Both the position numbers and the translations under genes were made by a program. This document shows positions 1-12,293 of a stretch of DNA of 64,000 bases, piece by piece. The stretch comes from Escherichia coli (GTDB lineage: Bacteria > Pseudomonadota > Gammaproteobacteria > Enterobacterales > Enterobacteriaceae), in assembly GCF_003018235.1 (NCBI RefSeq), contig NZ_CP027439.1; one strand, 5' to 3'. Under the pieces are notes generated by a model. It did not search any database and had not been told where the DNA came from. It was given only the letters and a program-made list of their open reading frames with translations. Numbering within the stretch: the stretch's first letter is position 1; each line of letters starts with the position of its first letter.

Positions 1-1269
1 CGCCTGTATGCCGCGTCACGTCTTGACCCGGAGACGTATAAGAAAGTCCATGATGCCGGTTTCCGCTGGGCACCAAAACAGGCGCTGTTTGTCGCGCCAG
101 CTTGGACACCGGGCCGGGAAGATGTGCTCCTCTCACTTGCCGGAGAGATTGAGGATGAAGACAGCACACTCGCTGAACGTCAGGAAGCACGGGCGGAGCG
201 GTTTACTGGATACAGCGGAAAGCGGGCCAGTGAATCCGCACAGGCACTTGATGAAGTGGAAAGACTGGCCGCGATGATCCCGCCCGGTCAGCCCATTCTT
301 GTGGGGCATCACAGCGAACGCCGCGCCCGTCGTGATGCGCAGCGTATTGAAAACGGCATGAAACGTGCTGTGATGCTCTTTGAACGTGCAGAATACTGGG
401 AAGAGCGGGCGCGCTCGGCACTGCTTCACGCGAAGTATAAAGAACGTCCGGACGTTCGCTGGCGTCGTATCAAAAAAATCGAAGCTGATTTGCGCAAGTC
501 TGAAAAGACCATCGCGCAGTCGCAGAAATATCTGACGATGTGGCGGGCTGAATCGCTGGATCTGAATATGGCAAAACTCATCAGCAGTCATGACCATATC
601 AGCGCCTGTTTCCCGCTGGATACGTATCCGCGCCCGGCAGAAAAAAGCCAGTATGAAGGAAGTCGCTCGTTATGGTCGGCCCTGGATGATGACATCATCA
701 CCACGGAGCAGGCCCGTGAAATTGCGATCCGCTGTCATGAACGGCAGATTCAGCGTCAGCAACGCTGGGTTAACCACTATCAGAACCGCCTGATCTATGA
801 GCGTGCCATGCTGGACGAAAGCGGCGGCGTGGTTACCCGGACACAGGATTTTGAGCCGGGCGGACAGGTTTTCAGCCGGGGTGAGTGGCTGACCATCATC
901 CGCGTGAACAAAAGCAACGGGGCGGTGAGTTCAGTCACAACGCCAAATTACAGTTTTCTCGGGTACAGCGGCACGATGAAAGTGACGCCCGATCGCATCA
1001 CGGACTACAAAGCACCATCGGCAGAAGAGGCTGCCGTCGCCAGCCAGGCCGCGAAGCGTCCGCCGGTAGTCAACTATCCGGGGGAAGGTTTCCGGGAAAT
1101 GACAAAGGCACAGTGGGCCGCCCTGCCCCGGGACTGTAAGGCCGTGCGCAGTGTGGCAGAAGCAGAAGACCACGGGGCATACCGCTACCGCCGCACAATG
1201 GACAATAATTTCCGTCTGGTGAATGTGTATATCACCGACATGAAAATTACGGAAATCCCACAGAAATAA
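1..1269 (+). CDS. Leading-region protein of unknown function, 5' end lies outside the window
   Basis: Reading frame is open from window position 1 with no upstream stop; the listed 381-aa ORF 124..1269 is its C-terminal part. Sits upstream of the methyltransferase and ssb, as in F-like leading regions. Confidence 0.55.
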   Translation, partial: RLYAASRLDPETYKKVHDAGFRWAPKQALFVAPAWTPGREDVLLSLAGEIEDEDSTLAERQEARAERFTGYSGKRASESAQALDEVERLAAMIPPGQPILVGHHSERRARRDAQRIENGMKRAVMLFERAEYWEERARSALLHAKYKERPDVRWRRIKKIEADLRKSEKTIAQSQKYLTMWRAESLDLNMAKLISSHDHISACFPLDTYPRPAEKSQYEGSRSLWSALDDDIITTEQAREIAIRCHERQIQRQQRWVNHYQNRLIYERAMLDESGGVVTRTQDFEPGGQVFSRGEWLTIIRVNKSNGAVSSVTTPNYSFLGYSGTMKVTPDRITDYKAPSAEEAAVASQAAKRPPVVNYPGEGFREMTKAQWAALPRDCKAVRSVAEAEDHGAYRYRRTMDNNFRLVNVYITDMKITEIPQK

Positions 1270-1315
1270 GGTATATCCCCCCGGGAAATCCCCGGGGGAT
1301 GACGGAGATAATGAC

Positions 1316-1879
1316 ATGCACAGTCAGTTAAAAGAACGTATCCGGCTGATGCGCGCAAGGCTGGATAACGCCGCGCCGGTTGCTGAAATCCGGGCTGAAT
1401 CTCAGCTTTTTGTGACTCCTGCCCCGGTCTGTGATCGCCTGGTGACGCTGGCGGAGATCAGCAACCGTGATCACATTCTGGAACCCTCTGCCGGCACCGG
1501 GGCCATACTGCGGGCGATTCGGGATACCGCGCCGGGGGCCATGTGTGATGCGGTGGAAATCAACAGCGGGCTGGTCCGGTATCTGCGGGAAAATTTTAAC
1601 GGTGTCAGGGTTCAGTGTGGCGACTTCATGGAATGGCAGCCGGTGCAGTATTACAGCCGGGTTATCATGAATCCGCCGTTCAGCCACGGGCAGGATATCC
1701 GGCATATCCTGCGGGCCTTTTCCCTGTTGCGTCCGGGTGGCGTGCTGGTTGCCGTCTGTCTGAACGGGCCGCGCCAGCAGGAGAAGCTGTTACCGTTTTC
1801 TGACGTCCGCGAGGAGCTGCCACGCGGCACGTTTGCTTATACCGATGTTCCGACGATGATTATTCGTCTGCGTGCCTGA
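1316..1879 (+). CDS. Orphan DNA methyltransferase (N6-adenine type)
   Basis: 187-aa ORF with AdoMet-binding motif EPSAGTGA and catalytic NPPF motif; no adjacent restriction endonuclease gene. Confidence 0.75.
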   Translation: MHSQLKERIRLMRARLDNAAPVAEIRAESQLFVTPAPVCDRLVTLAEISNRDHILEPSAGTGAILRAIRDTAPGAMCDAVEINSGLVRYLRENFNGVRVQCGDFMEWQPVQYYSRVIMNPPFSHGQDIRHILRAFSLLRPGGVLVAVCLNGPRQQEKLLPFSDVREELPRGTFAYTDVPTMIIRLRA

Positions 1880-2060
1880 TGACTCCGGGCAGGCGGGAGG
1901 ACAAATGCCCGTCTGCCCGCGCCGGGAAAAGACCGCGCGCCGGTGGCGCTGAAAGGGGCCGCGCTCACGCGCCGCCCCTTACATTACGCGGACATTCTGC
2001 TGTGGGCTTCTGTCTTTTCAGACCTGTCATTTGTCTGTTACTGATGATGTTGTTGTTCCT

Positions 2061-2108
2061 GCTACTGCTACTGCTACTGCTACTGCTACTGCTACTGCTA
2101 CTGCTACT
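2061..2108. repeat. Hexanucleotide microsatellite (GCTACT)x8
   Basis: Eight perfect tandem copies read directly from the sequence; preceded by TGATGA/TGTTGT triplet repeats. Confidence 0.9.
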
Positions 2109-2109
2109 G

Positions 2110-2700
2110 TTCTTCTTTTTTCTGCTGTTCTGATTACTGCCTGTTTTGTTGTTCTCCTGCTTATGCCTTTTCCGGGCGTCCCCCTGGCGGGGCGGGCTGT
2201 CGTGAACGGAGCCAGCGAAGCTGTCTCCGCCCTGGCGGGCTTCCATCCCTGACGCGAAACCCCGGGCTTGCAGCGACCGTTCCGGTCGCGCCGCCTCTGT
2301 CGCGCCGTGGCCTGCGCTCCCGGCATCCCGGCAAAAGGCCGCCGGGATGTAAGGGGCAACGCCGTTTCGCAAACCGCGCTTCACGTCGTTGCGGCGGGTC
2401 CCTGTCCGTTGTTGTGTCCGGTGCCATTCACCTGTTTAAGCCCCTGTCGCCGGGGGCTGATACAGCCACAACCGTCTCCGCCAGTCCAGGGGTGAAATGT
2501 ACATCCCGCAAAACTTTTTGCCCAAAAGCAGGCAAAAACTTTTGCGGTCTGCCCCCGGACAGTCGTTTCCGGCCGTGGCAGTGATGCCCCTTGCGGCGAA
2601 GGTTCTCAAAAAGGTGATGGTGAATACCGGAGGGAACAAAAGGCAGGTCCCCGCAAAACGTCAAAACCGCGGCTCCCGAAACTCAAAAGATGATGGGGGC
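2110..2700 (+). promoter_or_regulatory. Frpo/ssi-like structured repeat, copy A (candidate single-strand promoter) upstream of ssb
   Basis: About 600 bp of GC-rich, hairpin-dense non-coding DNA ending just before the ssb RBS; paralogous to 7480..8125. Contains hairpin 2506..2547 (ccgcaaaactttttgcc/ggcaaaaacttttgcgg). Confidence 0.5.
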
Positions 2701-2728
2701 TGAAAACATCAACAGAAGGAGGCACATC

Positions 2729-3558
<830 letters not shown>

Positions 3559-3621
3559 GAGAGGTGCCGGACGGGAACGCGTCCGGCAGACATACAACCA
3601 TCCCGGTCAAAGGAGAAATAT

Positions 3622-5580
3622 ATGTCAGTTACAGAGTCTAAGACAAAAACGGAGCGTAAATCCAGCCGTAAACCTGCAAAAACGCAGGAAACAGTCCTGT
3701 CTGCCCTGCTGGCGCAGACGGAGGAAGTGAGCGTGCCGCTGGCCTCACTGATTAAATCACCGCTGAATGTGCGCACGGTGCCGTATTCTGCGGAGTCCGT
3801 CAGCGAACTGGCGGACTCCATTAAAGGCGTCGGCCTGTTACAGAATCTGGTTGTTCATGCCCTGCCAGGTGACCGTTACGGTGTCGCCGCAGGTGGTCGC
3901 CGACTGGCTGCACTCAACATGCTGGCAGAGCGTGGCATCATTCCGGCTGACTGGCCTGTCCGTGTGAAGGTCATTCCGCAGGAGCTGGCGACGGCGGCAT
4001 CAATGACTGAAAACGGTCATCGTCGGGATATGCACCCTGCTGAACAGATTGCCGGATTCCGCGCAATGGCGCAGGAAGGCAAAACACCTGCACAAATCGG
4101 TGATTTGCTGGGCTATTCACCCCGCCATGTCCAGCGAATGCTGAAACTGGCAGATCTTGCGCCTGTCATCCTCGATGCGCTGGCAGAAGACCGCATCACC
4201 ACCGAACACTGTCAGGCGCTGGCACTGGAGAACGACACCGCGCGTCAGGTGCAGGTGTTTGAAGCCGCCTGCCAGTCAGGATGGGGTGGAAAACCGGAAG
4301 TGCAGACCATTCGTCGTCTGGTGACCGAAAGTGAAGTGGCGGTGGCGGGGAACAGTAAATTCCGCTTCGTGGGGGCTGATGCCTTCTCGCCAGATGAACT
4401 GCGCACCGATTTGTTCAGCGACGACGAGGGTGGCTATGTGGACTGTGTTGCGCTCGATGTCGCCCTGCTGGAAAAACTCCAGGCTGTCGCAGAGTTCCTT
4501 CGGGAAGCCGAAGGCTGGGAATGGTGCGCCGGACGTATGGAGCCTGTTGGTGAGTGCCGTGAGGATGCCGGAACATACCGCTGTCTGCCGGAGCCGGAAG
4601 CGGTGCTGACGGAGGCGGAAGAAGAACGCCTGAACGAACTGATGGCACGTTACGACGCGCCGGAAAACCAGAGTGAGGAATCCGACCTGCTGGAAGCCGA
4701 AATGAAGCTGATGCGCTGCATGGCGAAGGTCAGGGCGTGGACGCCGGAGATGCGTGCCGGAAGTGGCGTGGTGGTGTCCTGGCGTTATGGCAACGTGTGT
4801 GTCCAGCGTGGTGTGCAGTTGCGCAGTGAGGATGATGTGGCTGATAACGATTACCGCACGGAACAGGTGCAGGAGAAAGCCTCAGTGGAGGAAATCAGTC
4901 TGCCGCTGCTGACGAAAATGTCCTCAGAGCGCACGCTGGCAGTCCAGGCGGCACTGATGCAGCAATCAGACAAATCCCTGGCACTTCTGGCATGGACACT
5001 CTGTCTGAATGTATTTGGCAGTGGAGCGTACAGCAATCCCGCCAGAATCCGCCTGGAATGTGAGCATTATTCGCTGACCAGCGATGCGCCGTCAGGGAAG
5101 GAAGGTGCCGCATTCATGGCGATGATGGCAGAAAAAGCCCGTCTTGCCGCCCTGCTGCCGGATGGATGGGCACGGGATATGACGACGTTCCTGTCACTCA
5201 GTCAGGAGGTGCTGTTATCACTGCTCAGTTTCTGCACCGCGTGCAGTATCCACGGTGTCCAGACCCGTGAGTATGGTCACACGTCACGCAGTCCGCTGGA
5301 TTCGCTGGAAAGCGCCATCGGCTTTCACATGCGCGACTGGTGGCAGCCGACAAAAGCAAACTTCTTCGGACACCTGAAAAAGCCGCAGATTATCGCAGCC
5401 CTGAATGAGGCAGGACTGTCCGGTGCTGCACGGGACGCGGAGAAGATGAAGAAAGGCGATGCGGCTGAACATGCAGAGTTCCACATGAAAGACAACCGCT
5501 GGGTGCCTGGCTGGATGTGTGCACCACGCCCACAGACGGATGCCACTGAACGCACCGATAACCTGGCTGATGCCGCCTGA
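3622..5580 (+). CDS. ParB-like nuclease-domain protein (leading region)
   Basis: 652-aa ORF whose N-terminal region has a ParB/Srx-like fold signature (LLQNLVVHALPGDRYGVAAGGRRLAALNM); RBS AAGGAG upstream. Confidence 0.7.
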   Translation: MSVTESKTKTERKSSRKPAKTQETVLSALLAQTEEVSVPLASLIKSPLNVRTVPYSAESVSELADSIKGVGLLQNLVVHALPGDRYGVAAGGRRLAALNMLAERGIIPADWPVRVKVIPQELATAASMTENGHRRDMHPAEQIAGFRAMAQEGKTPAQIGDLLGYSPRHVQRMLKLADLAPVILDALAEDRITTEHCQALALENDTARQVQVFEAACQSGWGGKPEVQTIRRLVTESEVAVAGNSKFRFVGADAFSPDELRTDLFSDDEGGYVDCVALDVALLEKLQAVAEFLREAEGWEWCAGRMEPVGECREDAGTYRCLPEPEAVLTEAEEERLNELMARYDAPENQSEESDLLEAEMKLMRCMAKVRAWTPEMRAGSGVVVSWRYGNVCVQRGVQLRSEDDVADNDYRTEQVQEKASVEEISLPLLTKMSSERTLAVQAALMQQSDKSLALLAWTLCLNVFGSGAYSNPARIRLECEHYSLTSDAPSGKEGAAFMAMMAEKARLAALLPDGWARDMTTFLSLSQEVLLSLLSFCTACSIHGVQTREYGHTSRSPLDSLESAIGFHMRDWWQPTKANFFGHLKKPQIIAALNEAGLSGAARDAEKMKKGDAAEHAEFHMKDNRWVPGWMCAPRPQTDATERTDNLADAA

Positions 5581-5634
5581 TGAACAACCACACCGCCCCG
5601 CCGGAGACGGGGCGGCAGCAAGGGAGATACCGTG

Positions 5635-6069
5635 ATGAAAACTGAACTGACCCTGAATGTATTACAGACCATGAACGCACAGGAATATGAAGATATCCGG
5701 GCTGCCGGAAGTGATGAACGCCGTGAGCTGACTCACGCCGTGATGCGGGAGCTGGATGCGCCGGATAACTGGACGATGAACGGCGAGTACGGCAGCGAGT
5801 TTGGCGGCTTTTTCCCCGTCCAGGTCCGTTTCACGCCTGCCCACGAACGTTTTCACCTGGCGTTATGTTCACCGGGCGATGTCTCTCAGGTCTGGGTGCT
5901 GGTTCTGGTGAATGCCGGTGGTGAGCCGTTTGCGGTGGTTCAGGTACAGCGGCGGTTTGCACCGGAAGCCGTCAGCCATTCACTGGCACTGGCGGCGTCA
6001 CTGGATACGCAGGGGTACAGCGTTAACGACATCATCCATATCCTGATGGCGGAAGGAGGTCAGGTATGA
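5635..6069 (+). CDS. psiB: Plasmid SOS inhibition protein B
   Basis: 144-aa product starting [25 protein letters not shown], matching PsiB in length and sequence. Confidence 0.9.
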
Positions 6070-6785
6070 GCGTACGTTCACAGGCACTGGTTCCCCTCAG
6101 CACAGAGCAACAGGCCGCATGGCGGGCGGTGGCGGAGACAGAAAAACGCCGCCATCAGGGTAACACGCTGGCGGAATATCCGTATGCGGGGGCGTTTTTC
6201 CGCTGTCTGAACGGAAGCCGCAGGATATCGCTGTCTGACCTGCGATTTTTCATGCCGTCCCTGACCGCAGAAGAACTGCACGGCAACCGTCTTCAGTGGC
6301 TGTATGCAGTCGATGTGCTGATTGAAACACAGGGCGAGGTCTGCCTCCTTCCCCTTCCCGGTGATGCAGCAGAGCGGTTGTTTCCGTCGGTGCGGTTTCG
6401 TGTCAGGGAGCGCAGTCGCCATAAATCCGCGCTGGTCATGCAGAAGTACAGCCGCCAGCAGGCACGGGAGGCAGAGCAGAAAGCCCGTGCGTACCAGGCG
6501 CTGGTCGCTCAGGCTGAAATCGAACTGGCATTCCATTCGCCGGAAACAGTCGGAAGCTGGCATGCACGCTGGAGTGACCGGGTGGCAGAGCATGACCTGG
6601 AAACCCTGTTCTGGCAGTGGGGCGAGCGTTTTCCGTCACTGGCCGGAATGGAACGCTGGCAGTGGCAGGATATGCCGTTCTGGCAGGTTATTGCGGAAGC
6701 CAGTCTTGCAGCAAGAGAGGCCGGTCACGCTGTCCGTGAGATGGAGCGGTGGATGGTGCCGAACAAACTCCGGGAGGCTGCGTGA
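6066..6785 (+). CDS. psiA: Plasmid SOS inhibition protein A
   Basis: 239 aa, start overlaps the psiB stop (ATGA); conserved psiB-psiA operon arrangement. Confidence 0.85.
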
Positions 6786-6929
6786 TGCGGCAACAATCAC
6801 ACAGATTACCCGTAAACAGCCTGAATGAGCGGGTTATTTTCAGGAAAAGTGAGTGTGGTCAGCGTGCAGGGATATGGGCTATGATGTGCCCGGCGCTTGA
6901 GGCTTTCTGCCTCATGACGTGAAGGTGGT

Positions 6930-7010
6930 TTGTTGCCGTGTTGTGTGGCAGAAAGAAGATAGCCCCGTAGTAAGTTAATTTTCATTAACCACCACGAGGC
7001 ATCCCTATGT
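6930..7010 (-). ncRNA. sok: Sok/FlmB-like antisense RNA of the hok-type killer locus (approximate position)
   Basis: Placed from the hok/sok paradigm: antisense to the leader and mok start upstream of hok. No promoter or ends were mapped. Confidence 0.3.
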
Positions 7011-7219
7011 CTAGTCCACATCAGGATAGCCTCTTACCGCGCTTTGCGCAAGGAGAAGAAGGCCATGAAACTACCACGAAGTTCCCTTGTCTGGTGTGTG
7101 TTGATCGTGTGTCTCACACTGTTGATATTCACTTATCTGACACGAAAATCGCTGTGCGAGATTCGTTACAGAGACGGACACAGGGAGGTGGCGGCTTTCA
7201 TGGCTTACGAATCCGGTAA
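7007..7219 (+). CDS. mok: Mok/FlmC-like overlapping reading frame (modulation of killing)
   Basis: 70-aa ORF overlapping hok in a different frame, as in hok/sok and flm loci. Confidence 0.6.
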
Positions 7220-7223
7220 GTAG
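7065..7223 (+). CDS. hok: Hok/FlmA-family type I toxin
   Basis: 52-aa peptide [52 protein letters not shown], typical Hok/Gef family; followed by GC-rich hairpins (fbi/terminator-like) at 7225..7330. Confidence 0.88.
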
Positions 7224-7479
7224 CAACCTGGAGGCGGGCGCAGGCCCGCCTTTTCAGGACTGATGCTGGTCTGACTACTGAAGCGCCTTTATAAAGGGGC
7301 TGCTGGTTCGCTGGTAGCCCCTTTCTCCTTGCTGATGTTGTACGGGCATGAACAACCTGACTTCAGGAAGATCGTTTCCCTTCAGGAACGGGGATGAACG
7401 CGCGCCTGCGGCGCCCGTTCTTTTCCCCCGCCTTCTCTGGTTATGGCCTGTCAGAAATCACATCACCTTCCCTGTGATT

Positions 7480-8125
7480 ATTCTCTTTTTCTTCCTGCTC
7501 TGATTCTGACTACTGCAGTGTTGTCCTGTCTGCTAGGCGCACCTTCGGCTCCCGGCTGCCTGGCGGCATCCGGTCGTCAGGCCCGACTCCGACAGGCAGC
7601 TGCTGGCGCACCTGCCAGTCTCCGCCGAACCCGCTGGCGCGGTTTCGGGCTGTCGCTACGGTCCGATGCGTGAAAACCACAGGCTTGCAGCGACCGTTCC
7701 GGTCGCGCCGCCTCTGTCGCGCCGTAGCCTGCGCTCCCGGCATCCCGGCAAAAGGCCGCCGGGATGTAAGGGGCAACGCCGTTTCGCAAACCGCGCTTCA
7801 CGTCGTTGCGGCGGGTCCCTGCCCGTTGTTGTGTCCGGTGCCATTCACCTGTTTAAGCCCCTGTCGCCGGGGGCTGATACAGCCACAACCTGCCGCACTG
7901 ACTGTCCAGGGTAAATGAACAGCCCACAAAATTTTTTACCCAAAACCCGGTAAAAAATTTTGCGTTCTGCCCAGGACAGGTGCGTCAGGCCGTGGCAGTG
8001 ATGCCCCTTGCGGCGAAGGTTCTCAAACAGGTGATGGTTAATACCGGAGGGAACAAAAGGCAGGTCCCCGCAAAACGTCAAAACCGCGGCTCCCGAAACT
8101 CAACAGATGATGGGGGCTGAAAACC
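7480..8125 (+). promoter_or_regulatory. Frpo/ssi-like structured repeat, copy B, upstream of the orf95-like gene
   Basis: Paralogue of 2110..2700 with long identical blocks (7683..7897, 7985..8125). Hairpin 7925..7964 (cacaaaattttttacc/ggtaaaaaattttgcg) carries compensatory changes relative to copy A. Confidence 0.5.
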
Positions 8126-8137
8126 AGAGAAAGCAGG

Positions 8138-8425
8138 ATGAGTACCCGAAATATCCACGTTAACACCGCGTCGTACACGCTTCTTGTTGCCGGGAAGAAA
8201 AAAAACACCGGGGAAGAGTGGGACGTCCTGGAATTCAGCAGCCTGACTGAGCTGAAAAAATATCGCAAAAGCCACCCGGAAAAGATGGCCTTCAGCTATA
8301 GCTACGCGCTCAGCCAGGGTGTGGATACGCAGTTCCGCCATATCAACATTGCGGAAGCTGATCACTTCAAACAGTTCCTGCGTCAGATTAAGCGTGCCGG
8401 CCTCGATATCCGGGCGATCTGCTGA
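8138..8425 (+). CDS. Leading-region protein, orf95-like
   Basis: 95-aa ORF directly downstream of Frpo-like copy B. Confidence 0.6.
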   Translation: MSTRNIHVNTASYTLLVAGKKKNTGEEWDVLEFSSLTELKKYRKSHPEKMAFSYSYALSQGVDTQFRHINIAEADHFKQFLRQIKRAGLDIRAIC

Positions 8426-8542
8426 CCGGATGTGATGAATATCCCTCCTGATTGTTGCAATGTTGTTAATGGAGAACGGGGGGATGATATTAAGCGGAAA
8501 AATTTTTTATTAAATTTATTCTTTCATAAAGGAGTAGCTGTT

Positions 8543-9364
8543 ATGCGATTAGCTTCCCGTTTTGGTCGGTATAATTCCATCCGCCGTGAACGTCCTTTAA
8601 CGGATGATGAATTAATGCAGTTCGTGCCTTCGGTATTTTCCGGTGATAAACATGAGTCCCGGAGTGAACGTTATACGTATATTCCAACAATCAATATCAT
8701 CAATAAGTTACGTGATGAAGGTTTCCAGCCATTCTTTGCCTGTCAGAGTCGGGTTCGTGATTTGGGGCGTCGGGAATACAGTAAATATATGTTACGTCTT
8801 CGTAGGGAAGGGCATATTAACGGGCAGGAAGTTCCTGAAATTATCCTGCTTAATTCACATGATGGTTCATCCAGTTATCAGATGATCCCGGGAATTTTTC
8901 GTTTTGTCTGCACAAATGGCCTGGTGTGCGGAAATAATTTTGGCGAAATCCGCGTTCCACATAAAGGTGATATTGTCGGGCAGGTTATCGAGGGAGCGTA
9001 TGAAGTGCTCGGTGTCTTTGATAAGGTCACTGATAATATGGAGGCAATGAAAGAAATTCATCTTAACAGTGACGAGCAACATTTATTTGGCAGAGCTGCC
9101 CTGATGGTCAGGTATGAAGATGAAAATAAAACGCCGGTGACGCCTGAACAGATAATTACTCCCCGTCGTCGGGAGGATAAACAGAACGATCTCTGGACAA
9201 CCTGGCAGCGGGTTCAGGAGAATATGATAAAAGGTGGATTATCGGGGCGAAGTGCCTCCGGGAAAAATACCAGGACAAGAGCCATTACAGGTATTGATGG
9301 TGATATAAGAATCAACAAAGCATTATGGATGATTGCCGAACAGTTCAGGGAGTGGAAGTCATGA
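8543..9364 (+). CDS. Leading-region protein, orf273-like (DUF932-type)
   Basis: 273-aa product from internal start MRLASRFGRY; size and position match the F-like orf273. Confidence 0.6.
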   Translation: MRLASRFGRYNSIRRERPLTDDELMQFVPSVFSGDKHESRSERYTYIPTINIINKLRDEGFQPFFACQSRVRDLGRREYSKYMLRLRREGHINGQEVPEIILLNSHDGSSSYQMIPGIFRFVCTNGLVCGNNFGEIRVPHKGDIVGQVIEGAYEVLGVFDKVTDNMEAMKEIHLNSDEQHLFGRAALMVRYEDENKTPVTPEQIITPRRREDKQNDLWTTWQRVQENMIKGGLSGRSASGKNTRTRAITGIDGDIRINKALWMIAEQFREWKS

Positions 9365-9660
9365 TAATATAAGTAAAGCCCCGAAAAATTTTTCGGGGCT
9401 TTACTTATATTATCATCCTGCGGCATTGCTATGTCGTCTGATATGCCTCAATTTCATCAACTGGCTTTTCGGTAGTATGTAAATATTGTGCCCGCGAAAA
9501 ATGGTCTGGCAGGAGGCTGCGCAGTTACCGGATATATATAAGATGGGTTCCCGCTTTGCGGGGCTTCGGCCAGTCAGTATTGTCACTCATATGATATTTT
9601 TGTGTGTGGCCTTCCATGCCGCTTTTGCGGCATAACCGATATCTGACAATGTCTGTAAGA

Positions 9661-10170
9661 TTAATTGTTCTGCACGCTGTTAATTTCCGGAAGTGATTTC
9701 TTCGTGGTCGGAACCTGGATGCCTTTACTGCTCTTTATCCCGGTATAAATCCGGTAAACCTCTGATGCGTAGGCAAGACGTCTCTGGTTCTGGCGTTCGG
9801 TCTTCCTGAATCCAGCATTGTATGCACCAACGGCCTCCCAGGAGACGCCCCATTTTTTAAAGGCTATTGCCAGATAATAAGCACCGGTATAAATGTTCAT
9901 GCAGGGATCTGTTGTCAGATGTTCCGGCTTAATTCCATAGCGGGCCAGTTCGTTAAAATGCTGGGAATCTACCTGCATCAGTCCGCTGCCATATCCCGTT
10001 ACCGGATTAATACCGATGGCATTAACCCGGTAACGGGATTCTTTCCATGATATTGCTCTCAGTAAATCAGGATCTATTTTGTAATCCCGGCCTGCAAGAT
10101 CAAAGCAATCAGTGGCATGGCAGATCTCATTTATAAACATCAGGCAGATGGCTAACATCCATTTTTTCAT
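9661..10170 (-). CDS. Lytic transglycosylase (orf169 / gene 19 family, VirB1-like)
   Basis: 169 aa with signal peptide [12 protein letters not shown] and transglycosylase motifs ([24 protein letters not shown]); RBS AGGTGG. Confidence 0.85.
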
Positions 10171-10239
10171 TTTTCCACCTCTGGTGACTTTATCCGTAAA
10201 TAATTTAACCCACTCCACAAAAAGGCTCAACAGGTTGGT

Positions 10240-10535
10240 GGTTCTCACCACCAAAAGCACCACACCCCACGCAAAAACAAGTTTTTGCTGATTTTTCTTT
10301 ATAAATAGAGAGTTATGAAAAATTAGTTTCTCTTACTCTCTTTATGATATTTAAAAAAGCGGTGGTACTGACTATTTTTATAAAAAACATTATTTTATAT
10401 TAGGGGCGCTGCTAGCGGCGCGGTGTGTTTTTTTATAGGATAACGCCAGGGGCGCTGCTAGCGGTGCGTCCCTGTTTGCATTATGAATTTTAGTGTTTCG
10501 AAATTAACTTTATTTTATGTTCAAAAAAGGTAATC
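10240..10535. other. oriT: nic region, inverted repeats and direct repeats consistent with TraM binding sites
   Basis: Minus strand reads GGTGGTGAGAACCACC...TTTGCGTGGGGTGTGGTGCTTTTGGTGG (F-type nic motif, nick near 10261/10262); direct repeats GGGGCGCTGCTAGCGG at ~10403 and ~10451; AT-rich tracts. Confidence 0.8.
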
Positions 10536-10539
10536 TCTA

Positions 10540-10923
10540 ATGGCTAAGGTGAACCTGTATATCAGCAATGATGCTTATGAAAAAATAAATGCGATTATTG
10601 AGAAGCGTCGACAGGAAGGGGCAAGGGAAAAAGATATCAGTTTTTCAGCAACAGCTTCAATGCTTCTTGAACTGGGGCTTCGTGTACATGAGGCTCAGAT
10701 GGAGCGTAAAGAGTCTGCATTTAATCAGACTGAGTTTAATAAATTGCTTCTTGAATGCGTTGTAAAAACACAATCATCAGTAGCGAAAATTTTGGGTATT
10801 GAGTCTCTCAGTCCTCATGTCTCCGGAAATCCAAAGTTTGAATATGCCAATATGGTTGAAGATATCAGGGAGAAGGTATCATCTGAGATGGAGCGATTTT
10901 TTCCAAAAAATGATGATGAATAA
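10540..10923 (+). CDS. traM: Relaxosome accessory protein TraM
   Basis: 127 aa, MAKVNLYISNDAYEKINAIIEKRRQEGAREKDISFSATASMLLELGLRV. Confidence 0.93.
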   Translation: MAKVNLYISNDAYEKINAIIEKRRQEGAREKDISFSATASMLLELGLRVHEAQMERKESAFNQTEFNKLLLECVVKTQSSVAKILGIESLSPHVSGNPKFEYANMVEDIREKVSSEMERFFPKNDDE

Positions 10924-11039
10924 AAGAAATTTGACTTCGTTCAAATATCAGAGTTTTTATGATTTAAAAGGGTGACAGTACGAAAGATAATTAGTATATT
11001 AATTACGTGGTTAATGCCACGTTAAAATTTGAATTTGAA

Positions 11040-11115
11040 AATCGCCGATGCAGGGAGTTCACGTCTCCCTGCATCGACTGTCCATAGAATCCTTTGTGAG
11101 GAGGTTCCTATGTAT
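11040..11115 (-). ncRNA. finP: FinP-like antisense RNA opposite the traJ leader (approximate)
   Basis: Stem-loop GATGCAGGGAG...CTCCCTGCATC (11047..11075) plus a second stem spanning the traJ RBS and start; position follows the FinOP paradigm. Ends not mapped. Confidence 0.4.
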
Positions 11116-11799
11116 CCGATGGATCGTATTCAACAAAAACATGCTCGTCAAATAGATCTGCTGGAAAATCTGACGGCAGTTATTCAGGATTATCCAAATC
11201 CAGCCTGTATCAGGGACGAAACTGGAAAATTTATTTTTTGCAATACGCTGTTTCATGAGTCATTTCTTACACAAGATCAAAGTGCTGAAAAATGGCTTCT
11301 GTCGCAGAGAGATTTTTGTGAATTGATCTCTGTCACAGAGATGGAAGCATACAGGAATGAGCATACGCATCTTAATCTTGTAGAGGATGTTTTTATTCAG
11401 AACAGATTCTGGACAATATCTATTCAGTCATTTCTTAATGGACACAGAAATATCATTCTGTGGCAATTTTATGATGCTGCTCATGTTCGTCATAAAGACA
11501 GTTATAATCAAAAAACGATTGTCAGTGATGATATCAGAAATATAATCAGAAGAATGAGTGATGATTCTTCTGTATCATCATATGTAAATGATGTCTTTTA
11601 CTTATATAGCACCGGAATCAGTCATAATGCTATAGCAAGAATATTAAACATATCCATCTCCACATCAAAGAAACACGCGTCTCTGATATGCGACTACTTC
11701 TCTGTTTCTAATAAAGATGAGTTAATCATCTTACTCTACAATAAAAAGTTTATTCATTATTTGTACGAGAAGGCTATGTGTATCATAAATACGCGTTAA
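11110..11799 (+). CDS. traJ: Transfer operon activator TraJ
   Basis: 229 aa from ATG at 11110 with RBS GAGGAGG; lies between traM and traY. Confidence 0.8.
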   Translation: MYPMDRIQQKHARQIDLLENLTAVIQDYPNPACIRDETGKFIFCNTLFHESFLTQDQSAEKWLLSQRDFCELISVTEMEAYRNEHTHLNLVEDVFIQNRFWTISIQSFLNGHRNIILWQFYDAAHVRHKDSYNQKTIVSDDIRNIIRRMSDDSSVSSYVNDVFYLYSTGISHNAIARILNISISTSKKHASLICDYFSVSNKDELIILLYNKKFIHYLYEKAMCIINTR

Positions 11800-11891
11800 T
11801 AAAGTGTTAATAAAATATAGACTTTCCGTCTATTTACCTTTTCTGATTATTCTGCAAACATAAGTAGTAACCAGAAGATAAACAGCGGGAG

Positions 11892-12293
11892 GTGTTATTG
11901 AAAAGATTTGGTACACGTTCTGCAACAGGTAAGATGGTAAAACTAAAATTACCTGTAGATGTGGAAAGTCTATTAATTGAGGCAAGTAACAGAAGCGGAA
12001 GAAGTCGATCGTTTGAGGCAGTAATAAGACTTAAAGATCATCTTCACCGCTATCCAAAGTTTAACAGGGCAGGGAATATCTATGGTAAGTCGCTGGTTAA
12101 GTATCTGACAATGCGTCTGGATGATGAAACTAACCAGCTACTTATTGCAGCCAAAAATCGTAGTGGATGGTGTAAAACAGATGAGGCTGCAGACAGAGTT
12201 ATTGATCATTTGATCAAGTTTCCTGATTTTTATAACTCGGAGATATTCAGGGAGGCAGATAAAGAGGAAGATATAACATTTAATACACTCTAG
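11892..12293 (+). CDS. traY: Relaxosome accessory protein TraY (tandem ribbon-helix-helix)
   Basis: LKRFGTRSATGKMVKLKLPVDVESLLIEASNRSGRSRSFEAVIRLKDHL and a second RHH repeat; the true start is probably the TTG at 11898 (GGAGG RBS). Confidence 0.8.
   Translation: MLLKRFGTRSATGKMVKLKLPVDVESLLIEASNRSGRSRSFEAVIRLKDHLHRYPKFNRAGNIYGKSLVKYLTMRLDDETNQLLIAAKNRSGWCKTDEAADRVIDHLIKFPDFYNSEIFREADKEEDITFNTL

Follow-up and report, generated by a model that had tools for sequence, protein, structure and literature searches.

A probable ortholog of the F-plasmid single-stranded DNA promoter Frpo upstream of ssb in the leading region of an IncF plasmid

We analyzed a stretch of DNA of 64,000 nucleotides (the window), which was found to comprise the leading and transfer region of an IncF plasmid. 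The region directly upstream of the plasmid ssb gene (2257-2728) is, with a probability of about 0.93, an ortholog of the F ssDNA promoter Frpo (ssiD/ssi, class 1, ssp1). The hairpin of this copy (copy A, ~332 nt) showed 97.3% identity to F Frpo1 and 88.1% identity to F Frpo2 (NC_002483), as well as 96.4% identity to the ssiD entry D90178, the sequence of which was taken from Samuel et al. 2024, Supplementary Table 2. These values agree with the first-pass annotation of the region, which had called it a Frpo/ssi-like element and had named alignment to F-plasmid Frpo as a check. The element is already known and was correctly recognised; it is not new. By its position upstream of ssb, copy A matches Frpo2/ssp1b, while its sequence is nearer to Frpo1.

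In later summaries of Masai and Arai (1997), Frpo is described as a ~328-nt sequence of the F leading region that, as a single strand, forms a stem-loop presenting -35 and -10 boxes, and in vitro this stem-loop binds sigma-70 RNA polymerase and yields RNA that can act as a primer. The two F copies, Frpo1 and Frpo2, are 92% identical and located ~5 kb apart (PMC9849209). In transconjugants, SsbF-sfGFP was no longer produced early when Frpo2 was deleted (Couturier et al. 2023, PMC9849209), and early expression of Ssb, YfjA, and YgeA reporters was lost upon deletion of Frpo1 or Frpo2 (PMC9849209). The frequency of transfer between K-12 strains was not measurably changed when Frpo2 or ssb was deleted from F (PMC9849209), which suggests that the fitness role of the copy at the ssb locus is modest under laboratory conditions. 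In 6,006 conjugative elements, Samuel et al. 2024 identified 13,089 homologues of Frpo. Using RNA-seq, Wen et al. observed that the operons of Frpo1 and Frpo2 are induced in transconjugants, and start sites of the IncI1 homologues were mapped by 5' RACE (PMC12672017). A 2026 preprint, in which the copies were renamed ssp1a and ssp1b, reported that early strand conversion at ssp1/Frpo loci is rifampicin-sensitive in vivo and that the transcripts prime conversion (bioRxiv 10.64898/2026.01.09.698686). Rifampicin-sensitive, SSB-stimulated transcription and priming, as well as early transient expression, are thus properties reported in the literature for the F and ColIb homologues.

Promoters of the Frpo type switch on genes for SOS inhibition, anti-restriction, and ssDNA binding within minutes after entry, before the plasmid is double-stranded, and are central to the spread of resistance plasmids. 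Copy A is one further instance among at least 5000 plasmid records. Our analysis adds clean coordinates, support from covariation and strand asymmetry across five genera, and a testable proposal for the promoter boxes and transcription start.

Plasmid setting and extent of the repeat

Over 2110-2728, the closest records, among them pVir68, were E. coli IncF plasmids with 98.9-99% identity. Elsewhere in the window, Rfam matches to the traJ 5' UTR, FinP, and sok were found, and the ORFs of traM (10540) and traJ (11029) follow an AT-rich oriT. We found an exact match to the F nic motif on the minus strand, with the nick located between 10262 and 10261 and traM, traJ, and FinP to the right of it. 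Because the exact motif lies on the minus strand, it is this strand that is transferred and that serves as template for ssb and ygeA. It is transferred 5' to 3' toward lower coordinates, where the leading region is located. The first-pass annotation had placed nic on the minus strand at about 10261 and had proposed this geometry for ssb; both statements held. It had also described structured DNA adjoining the ssb RBS, and the hairpin was indeed found to end 46 nt before the ssb ATG, with the RBS in between (Table 1). At copy B, the corresponding distance to the ygeA ATG is 38 nt. The ygeA homologue shares 94 of its 95 residues with the protein whose gene follows Frpo1 in F. We use the gene names of Couturier et al. 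2023 (PMC9849209).

Table 1 Features of the two repeat copies and their surroundings.
Feature	Position	Strand	Remarks
Copy A upstream flank	2150-2256	.	Homologous to both F Frpo flanks; diverges from copy B
Accessory small hairpins of the repeat	2257-2363	-	98% identical between copies A and B
Main imperfect hairpin, copy A (Frpo / ssp1-class core)	2364-2682	-	319 nt; outermost pair 2682:2364
3x4 internal loop	2585-2583 / 2458-2461	-	Predicted fold
Two template T residues, putative transcription start	2470-2471	-	G.T wobbles with G2574, G2573
One-sided 9-nt bulge TACATTTCA	2493-2501	-	3' arm, just under the apical stem
Apical 8-nt loop	2523-2530	-	Caps A/T-rich stem, CCGCAAAAgTTTTTGCC paired with GGCAAAAAgTTTTGCGG
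CATCAC, candidate pre-melted -10 region	2581-2586	-	17 nt after TTGAGA; ATC unpaired
TTGAGA, candidate -35 box	2604-2609	-	5' arm, mostly paired with 2436-2440
5-nt bulge ATTCA	2625-2621	-	Predicted fold
TTGACG, -35-like	2659-2664	-	Near hairpin base, conserved; no conserved -10 after it
Linker, hairpin base to ssb	2683-2728	+	RBS GAAGGAGG at 2715-2722
Plasmid ssb	2729-3262	+	First gene downstream of copy A; 93% identical to F SSB
Copy B of the repeat	7674-8124	-	Main hairpin 7781-8099; apical loop 7941-7948
ygeA homologue	8138-8425	+	First gene downstream of copy B; 95 aa
oriT nic motif GTGGGGTGT / GGTGCTTT	10254-10270	-	Exact F match

The repeat to which copy A belongs was found twice in the window. 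Positions 2257-2473 match 7674-7890 at 98%, and positions 2511-2707 match 7928-8124 at 86%. Both blocks are part of a single BLAST alignment of 454 nt with 92% identity (2257-2707 against 7674-8124), and BLAST found no third copy in the 64-kb window. The outer segments, 2110-2256 and 7480-7673, are both pyrimidine-rich and weakly similar, with a mean column identity of 66% in a four-way alignment. The near-identical blocks that had been noticed at first pass were therefore recovered within 2257-2707 and 7674-8124 and not in these outer segments. The repeat length of ~600 bp given at that stage has to be shortened, as the well-conserved part spans ~450 bp here. Likewise, of the extent of 2110-2700 assigned to the element, the functional core is the hairpin at 2364-2682, and 2110-2256 is upstream flank.

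Several further features were observed around the two copies. A perfect hexanucleotide microsatellite, (CTGCTA) x 8.5, is located at 2059-2109 within a pyrimidine-rich tract upstream of copy A, and F and copy B carry other CT-rich tracts at the equivalent position. On the transferred strand, the (CTGCTA) tract contains no self-complementary trimers, and one might speculate that it insulates the hairpin from neighbouring sequence. Within the upstream flank, GGAGCCAGCGAAGCTGTCTCC (2208-2228, plus strand) forms a small hairpin with GCGAAGC at its center, a motif known for DNA mini-hairpins of unusual stability. GGAGGAGCGAAGCTCCTTC is found in the ColIb-P9 ssi elements, although there it is located on the transferred strand and at the other end of the element. 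The minus strand upstream of the main hairpin of copy B (7500-7840) reached -89.8 kcal/mol per 300 nt at a GC content of 0.70, and its sequence is unlike the upstream flank of copy A. Just after the DUF932 gene, weak Rfam hits to microRNA and His-leader models were found on both strands at 9355-9419. Hits on both strands indicate a near-perfect palindrome, which is probably a bidirectional terminator.

In related IncF plasmids, a third class-1 copy was found upstream of an operon comprising a small ORF, DUF3560, and a SAM-methyltransferase (pVir68, L001, 5984-6310; L123, 16704-17033). The start of the window falls inside the DUF3560 gene (ORF 124-1269), so that a third copy, if present, would be located just outside the window.

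Fold, conservation, and alternative readings

Folded with DNA parameters, the minus strand at 2353-2684 (332 nt) reached -94.4 kcal/mol. For the longer segment 2250-2728 (479 nt), the predicted energy was -127.9 kcal/mol, compared with -91.8 +/- 5.0 kcal/mol for 100 dinucleotide shuffles, none of which folded as well (z = -7.3); the fold of copy B gave z = -10.1. When 300-nt windows of the minus strand were folded across positions 1-12000 (mean -46.5, sd 13.3 kcal/mol), the two copies were the deepest minima, at -86 and -94. Most variants of the hairpin have bulges comparable to TACATTTCA, namely TTCATTTA, GTATATCTT, and GCCATTTAC, while the long-tip type from Klebsiella and Serratia has no counterpart of the 9-nt bulge. 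The internal loop is kept at the same position in F-, Klebsiella-, and ColIb-type hairpins, with a variable loop sequence. On the transferred strand, the accessory hairpins follow the main hairpin on its 3' side; with respect to the genes, this is upstream. A search with the Rfam 15 covariance models gave no match in 2100-2730 or 7480-8130 at E <= 1.

The hairpin matched at least 5000 plasmid records from Escherichia, Klebsiella, Salmonella, Shigella, Citrobacter, and Enterobacter, and a query of the Serratia/Klebsiella type extended the matches to Raoultella, Yersinia, Serratia, and Edwardsiella. Homologues were drawn from a plasmid collection. A contig scan with the pattern TGTCCNGGGN{45,75}CCCTGGAC proved unspecific, with 120 chance matches in GC-rich genomes. 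We aligned 17 distinct hairpins from 10 plasmid records and the window (Escherichia, Salmonella, Klebsiella, Serratia, and Citrobacter plasmids) on the transferred strand with MAFFT and projected the minimum-free-energy structure of copy A onto the alignment. The fold was found to be kept through compensatory changes in the 17 homologues. Standard pairs occupied 82.7% of cells, compared with 42-50% when the 3' partners were slid by 1-3 columns, and 78 cells were compensatory, compared with 34 +/- 4 after shuffling (0 of 500 shuffles reached 78), with 21 pairs changed on both sides; these figures lean in favor of the fold, since the structure came from one of the aligned sequences and the rows are related. 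Helix 5 was 97% paired, with three fully covarying pairs. The value for helix 6 (61.7% paired) is an underestimate, as the MAFFT alignment is poor in the apical region.

A long hairpin next to a gene could also act as RNA or as duplex DNA: as a structured 5' leader, an attenuator or an insulator of the ssb operon, or as a terminator of the upstream methyltransferase operon. The plus strand does form a long hairpin as well (-81 vs -94 kcal/mol as DNA), and its sliding-window energies are low too. The two strands are nevertheless not equivalent. The transferred strand outfolded its complement in all 17 homologues, by 14 kcal/mol on average (range 8 to 20), and G.T wobbles, which turn into A.C mismatches on the opposite strand, were more common in the transferred-strand fold in 16 of them, with a tie in F Frpo2 (6 vs 6). 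Selection on the transferred strand would be expected to produce this asymmetry in stability and G.T pairs, which was obtained independently of the alignment and agrees with the covariation. Moreover, a consensus scan, which is a weak test of duplex inactivity, found no sigma-70-like site on either strand of 2000-2760, the Rfam search gave no family, and published expression precedes duplex conversion and is shut off after it (PMC9849209, PMC12672017). We regard a function as RNA or duplex as extremely improbable. It is also highly unlikely that the element is mainly an ssi site for complementary-strand DNA synthesis, with the primer as its main role and ssb expression incidental. The element was originally isolated as a priming signal (ssiD); according to the literature, its transcripts remain in RNA-DNA hybrids, which DNA polymerase III extends in vitro; and early conversion near psiA and ygeB is rifampicin-sensitive in vivo (bioRxiv 10.64898/2026.01.09.698686). 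Priming, however, is a second output of the same transcription event and no true alternative to it, and early downstream reporter expression is abolished by deletion of Frpo1 or Frpo2 (PMC9849209). Every copy examined abuts the RBS of a gene on the correct strand, a placement that a pure priming site would not need.

The placement of the copies also bears on whether the element is a small mobile or selfish repeat (MITE- or REP-like), as its occurrence at 2 to 8 places per plasmid might suggest. In the fetched loci, all 21 copies had the same orientation relative to the tra genes and oriT and abutted the first gene of an operon: ssb, DUF905, DUF932, ygeA, or the small gene heading the DUF3560-methyltransferase operon. 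Every copy in pVir68, F, pKPC2_095649, a Salmonella plasmid, and a Klebsiella IncFIB plasmid was located immediately upstream of a gene. The same region could instead be coding, as a 68-aa ORF on the plus strand (2497-2703), within the 5' arm and tip of the hairpin, is a 'hypothetical protein' in RefSeq. Many records have an ORF annotated at the match, and the frame is open in both copies of the window, but a frameshift removes its start in copy B, and it is interrupted by in-frame stops in the third copy of pVir68 and in copy c of the Klebsiella plasmid L131. No NCBIfam family was matched, and the variation follows base-pairing and not codons. We rejected the ORF as a gene; it is probably spurious. 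A mobile or coding origin of the hairpin has, in our judgement, a vanishingly small probability.

Candidate promoter boxes and transcription start

If the element acts as an ssDNA promoter, as we favor, the published steps of conjugation would bring the minus strand into the recipient with its 5' end, at nic (10261), in front. After ~7.6 kb, 2682-2364 would arrive and fold into the 319-nt imperfect hairpin, and host sigma-70 RNA polymerase, stimulated by SSB, would treat the stem as a promoter. The transferred strand would then be transcribed into ssb and the downstream leading genes before a complementary strand exists, and the transcript may stay annealed and serve as a primer for the complementary strand. 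Conversion of the region to duplex would remove the hairpin and switch the promoter off, resulting in a transient burst of expression. We infer that the 5' arm would serve as the non-template strand, with the RNA starting at ~A2470, passing the apical loop, and following the 5' arm into ssb, which would give a leader of ~259 nt.

We scanned the transferred strand of all 17 sequences for pairs of -35 and -10 boxes with position-weight matrices. In copy A, the candidate pairs were TTGAGA-17-CATCAC at the internal loop, TGGGCA-17-TACATT at the bulge, and TTGACG-17-TTTTGT. TTGAGA is invariant in all 17 family members, and TTGAGA-17 was the only candidate whose alignment column, spacer, and position at the internal loop were constant throughout. 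The hexamer at the -10 position, located in the conserved internal loop, reads CATCAC, CGTAAA, or CAAAGA across the family. The wobbles 2573-2574/2470-2471 (7990-7991/7887-7888 in copy B; alignment columns 112/239 and 113/238) are G.U in 17 and 15 of the 17 sequences, respectively. They are located 29-30 nt after TTGAGA in the three types counted (F, Klebsiella L131, and K. variicola L126), which is the canonical distance from -35 to +1, and the template T residues would specify an A start. We tentatively propose, with slightly less than even confidence, that the promoter consists of TTGAGA as the -35 box and the internal loop as the -10 region, with the start at the G.T wobbles at ~A2470. TTGAGA-17-CATCAC is not picked up by the duplex consensus scan, which would fit a promoter that is active only with its -10 region pre-melted in the hairpin. 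Two points count against this candidate. The active ColIb-P9 ssi elements do not have the same spacing between -35 and loop, and the functional Frpo2 fragment of Samuel et al. starts at a position equivalent to ~2442 and so lacks the 3'-arm partner of TTGAGA.

Among the 17 homologues, the two adjacent wobbles were never converted to Watson-Crick pairs. This suggests separate sequence constraints on the two arms.

A second candidate for the -10 box is TACATT in the 9-nt bulge, with TGGGCA 17 nt upstream at the loop. This pair scored 8.1 in copy A, was weak in type 2 tips (described below), and was absent from the Klebsiella long-tip type. TTGAC[G/T] was seen in all 17 sequences but with a variable spacer and without a conserved -10 box, and TTGACG-17-TTTTGT was rejected because its -10 partner is not conserved in the other types. 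We also rejected TTGCGG/TTGTGG-15..17-TGGACn, because the 9-nt one-sided bulge falls in its spacer and its -10 box is fully paired and lacks A-11; the whole module is, moreover, absent from short-tip variants. The position-weight scan, in which several weak candidates appeared, found no pair of -35 and -10 boxes cleanly common to the 17 hairpins and ColIb-P9.

Apical modules and related elements

We compared the arms and tips of the hairpins. Between the two copies of the window and the two F copies, the 5' arm (112 nt) shows 98-100% identity. The apical ~110 nt were found in two forms, type 1 and type 2, which are ~78% identical to each other. In F, the type 1 tip is located at ygeA and the type 2 tip at ssb (L002, 6270-6599 and 11659-11989). 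In the window, a type 1 tip is located at ssb (2474-2583, 97.3% identical to F Frpo1) and a type 2 tip at ygeA (7891-8000, 99.1% identical to F Frpo2). Compared with F, the tips of the ssb and ygeA loci are thus swapped, a small observation that is new. The swap of tips between near-identical arms suggests recombination or gene conversion between the copies and a modular architecture. Both loci of pKPC2_095649 carry type 2 tips, and other plasmids have either a long branched tip (Klebsiella/Serratia) or a short GC-only tip without the A/T-rich stem. It is conceivable, though on balance unlikely, that the hairpin is modular in the strict sense, with an exchangeable ~110-nt apical module that exists in at least four forms and recombines independently of an invariant lower stem. 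If so, the tip might determine how the hairpin nucleates, how strong the promoter is, how priming and mRNA synthesis are balanced, or how well helicases are resisted. If the proposed lower-stem unit is the real promoter, the tip would be a tuning element and not the promoter itself.

The short-tip variant (290 nt) was observed in Citrobacter and Klebsiella plasmids (L129, 704-993; L131, 22871-23160). In this variant, CGCGG-TTTA-CCGCG replaces the whole A/T-rich apical stem, while the bulge (TGCCATTTA), the GTCC.GGG/CCCTGGAC clamp, and the entire lower stem are retained. This argues that the A/T-rich tip is dispensable.

Copy A resembles each of the F copies in part. With Frpo1 (Frpo/ssiD, ssp1a) it shares the strand, the overall fold, and the type 1 tip (97.3%), but Frpo1 is located upstream of ygeA/ygeB, whereas the hairpin with the type 1 tip is located upstream of ssb here. 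Frpo2 (ssp1b) occupies the same site as copy A, directly upstream of ssb-yfjA-yfjB-psiB-psiA, and is identical to it in the 5' arm (112 nt) and in the linker and RBS, while the apical 110 nt are 78% identical and the base of the 3' arm is 86% identical.

The ssi1-3 elements of ColIb-P9/pESBL (IncI1 class 1; Bates 1999, Nasim 2004, Wen 2025) were found to contain a homologous apical module, GTCCGGGGG...CAAAAnTTTTTG...loop...CAAAAAnTTTTG..bulge..CCCCTGGAC. The internal loop below this module and the accessory hairpins are also homologous to those of copy A, and, as here, the elements are located on the transferred strand, ahead of their genes (ssb, psiB, and ardA). Their lower stem, in contrast, is shorter and unrelated in sequence, and they have GTGGACC in place of TTGAGA, at another distance from the internal loop. 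One accessory block, GGGAGCGCAGGCCACGGCGCGACAG (transferred strand; 2298-2322), has near-identical counterparts in ColIb-P9 ssi1-3, although the lower stems of the main hairpins are unrelated.

Class 2 (ssp2/'Frpo3', upstream of ardB/klcA) and class 3 (ssp3, upstream of an M.EcoGIX-like methylase) ssDNA promoters share the principle of Frpo, a long transferred-strand hairpin driving zygotic induction of leading genes, without sequence homology to the element of copy A. ssp2 is additionally a replication roadblock. In the minus-strand origin of M13/f1, an ssDNA hairpin is likewise recognised by sigma-70 RNA polymerase, which makes primer RNA; unlike Frpo, this filamentous phage origin yields a short primer only, drives no genes, and is unrelated in sequence. 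In related plasmids, ssp2 and ssp3 are located further from oriT, beyond the left end of the window.
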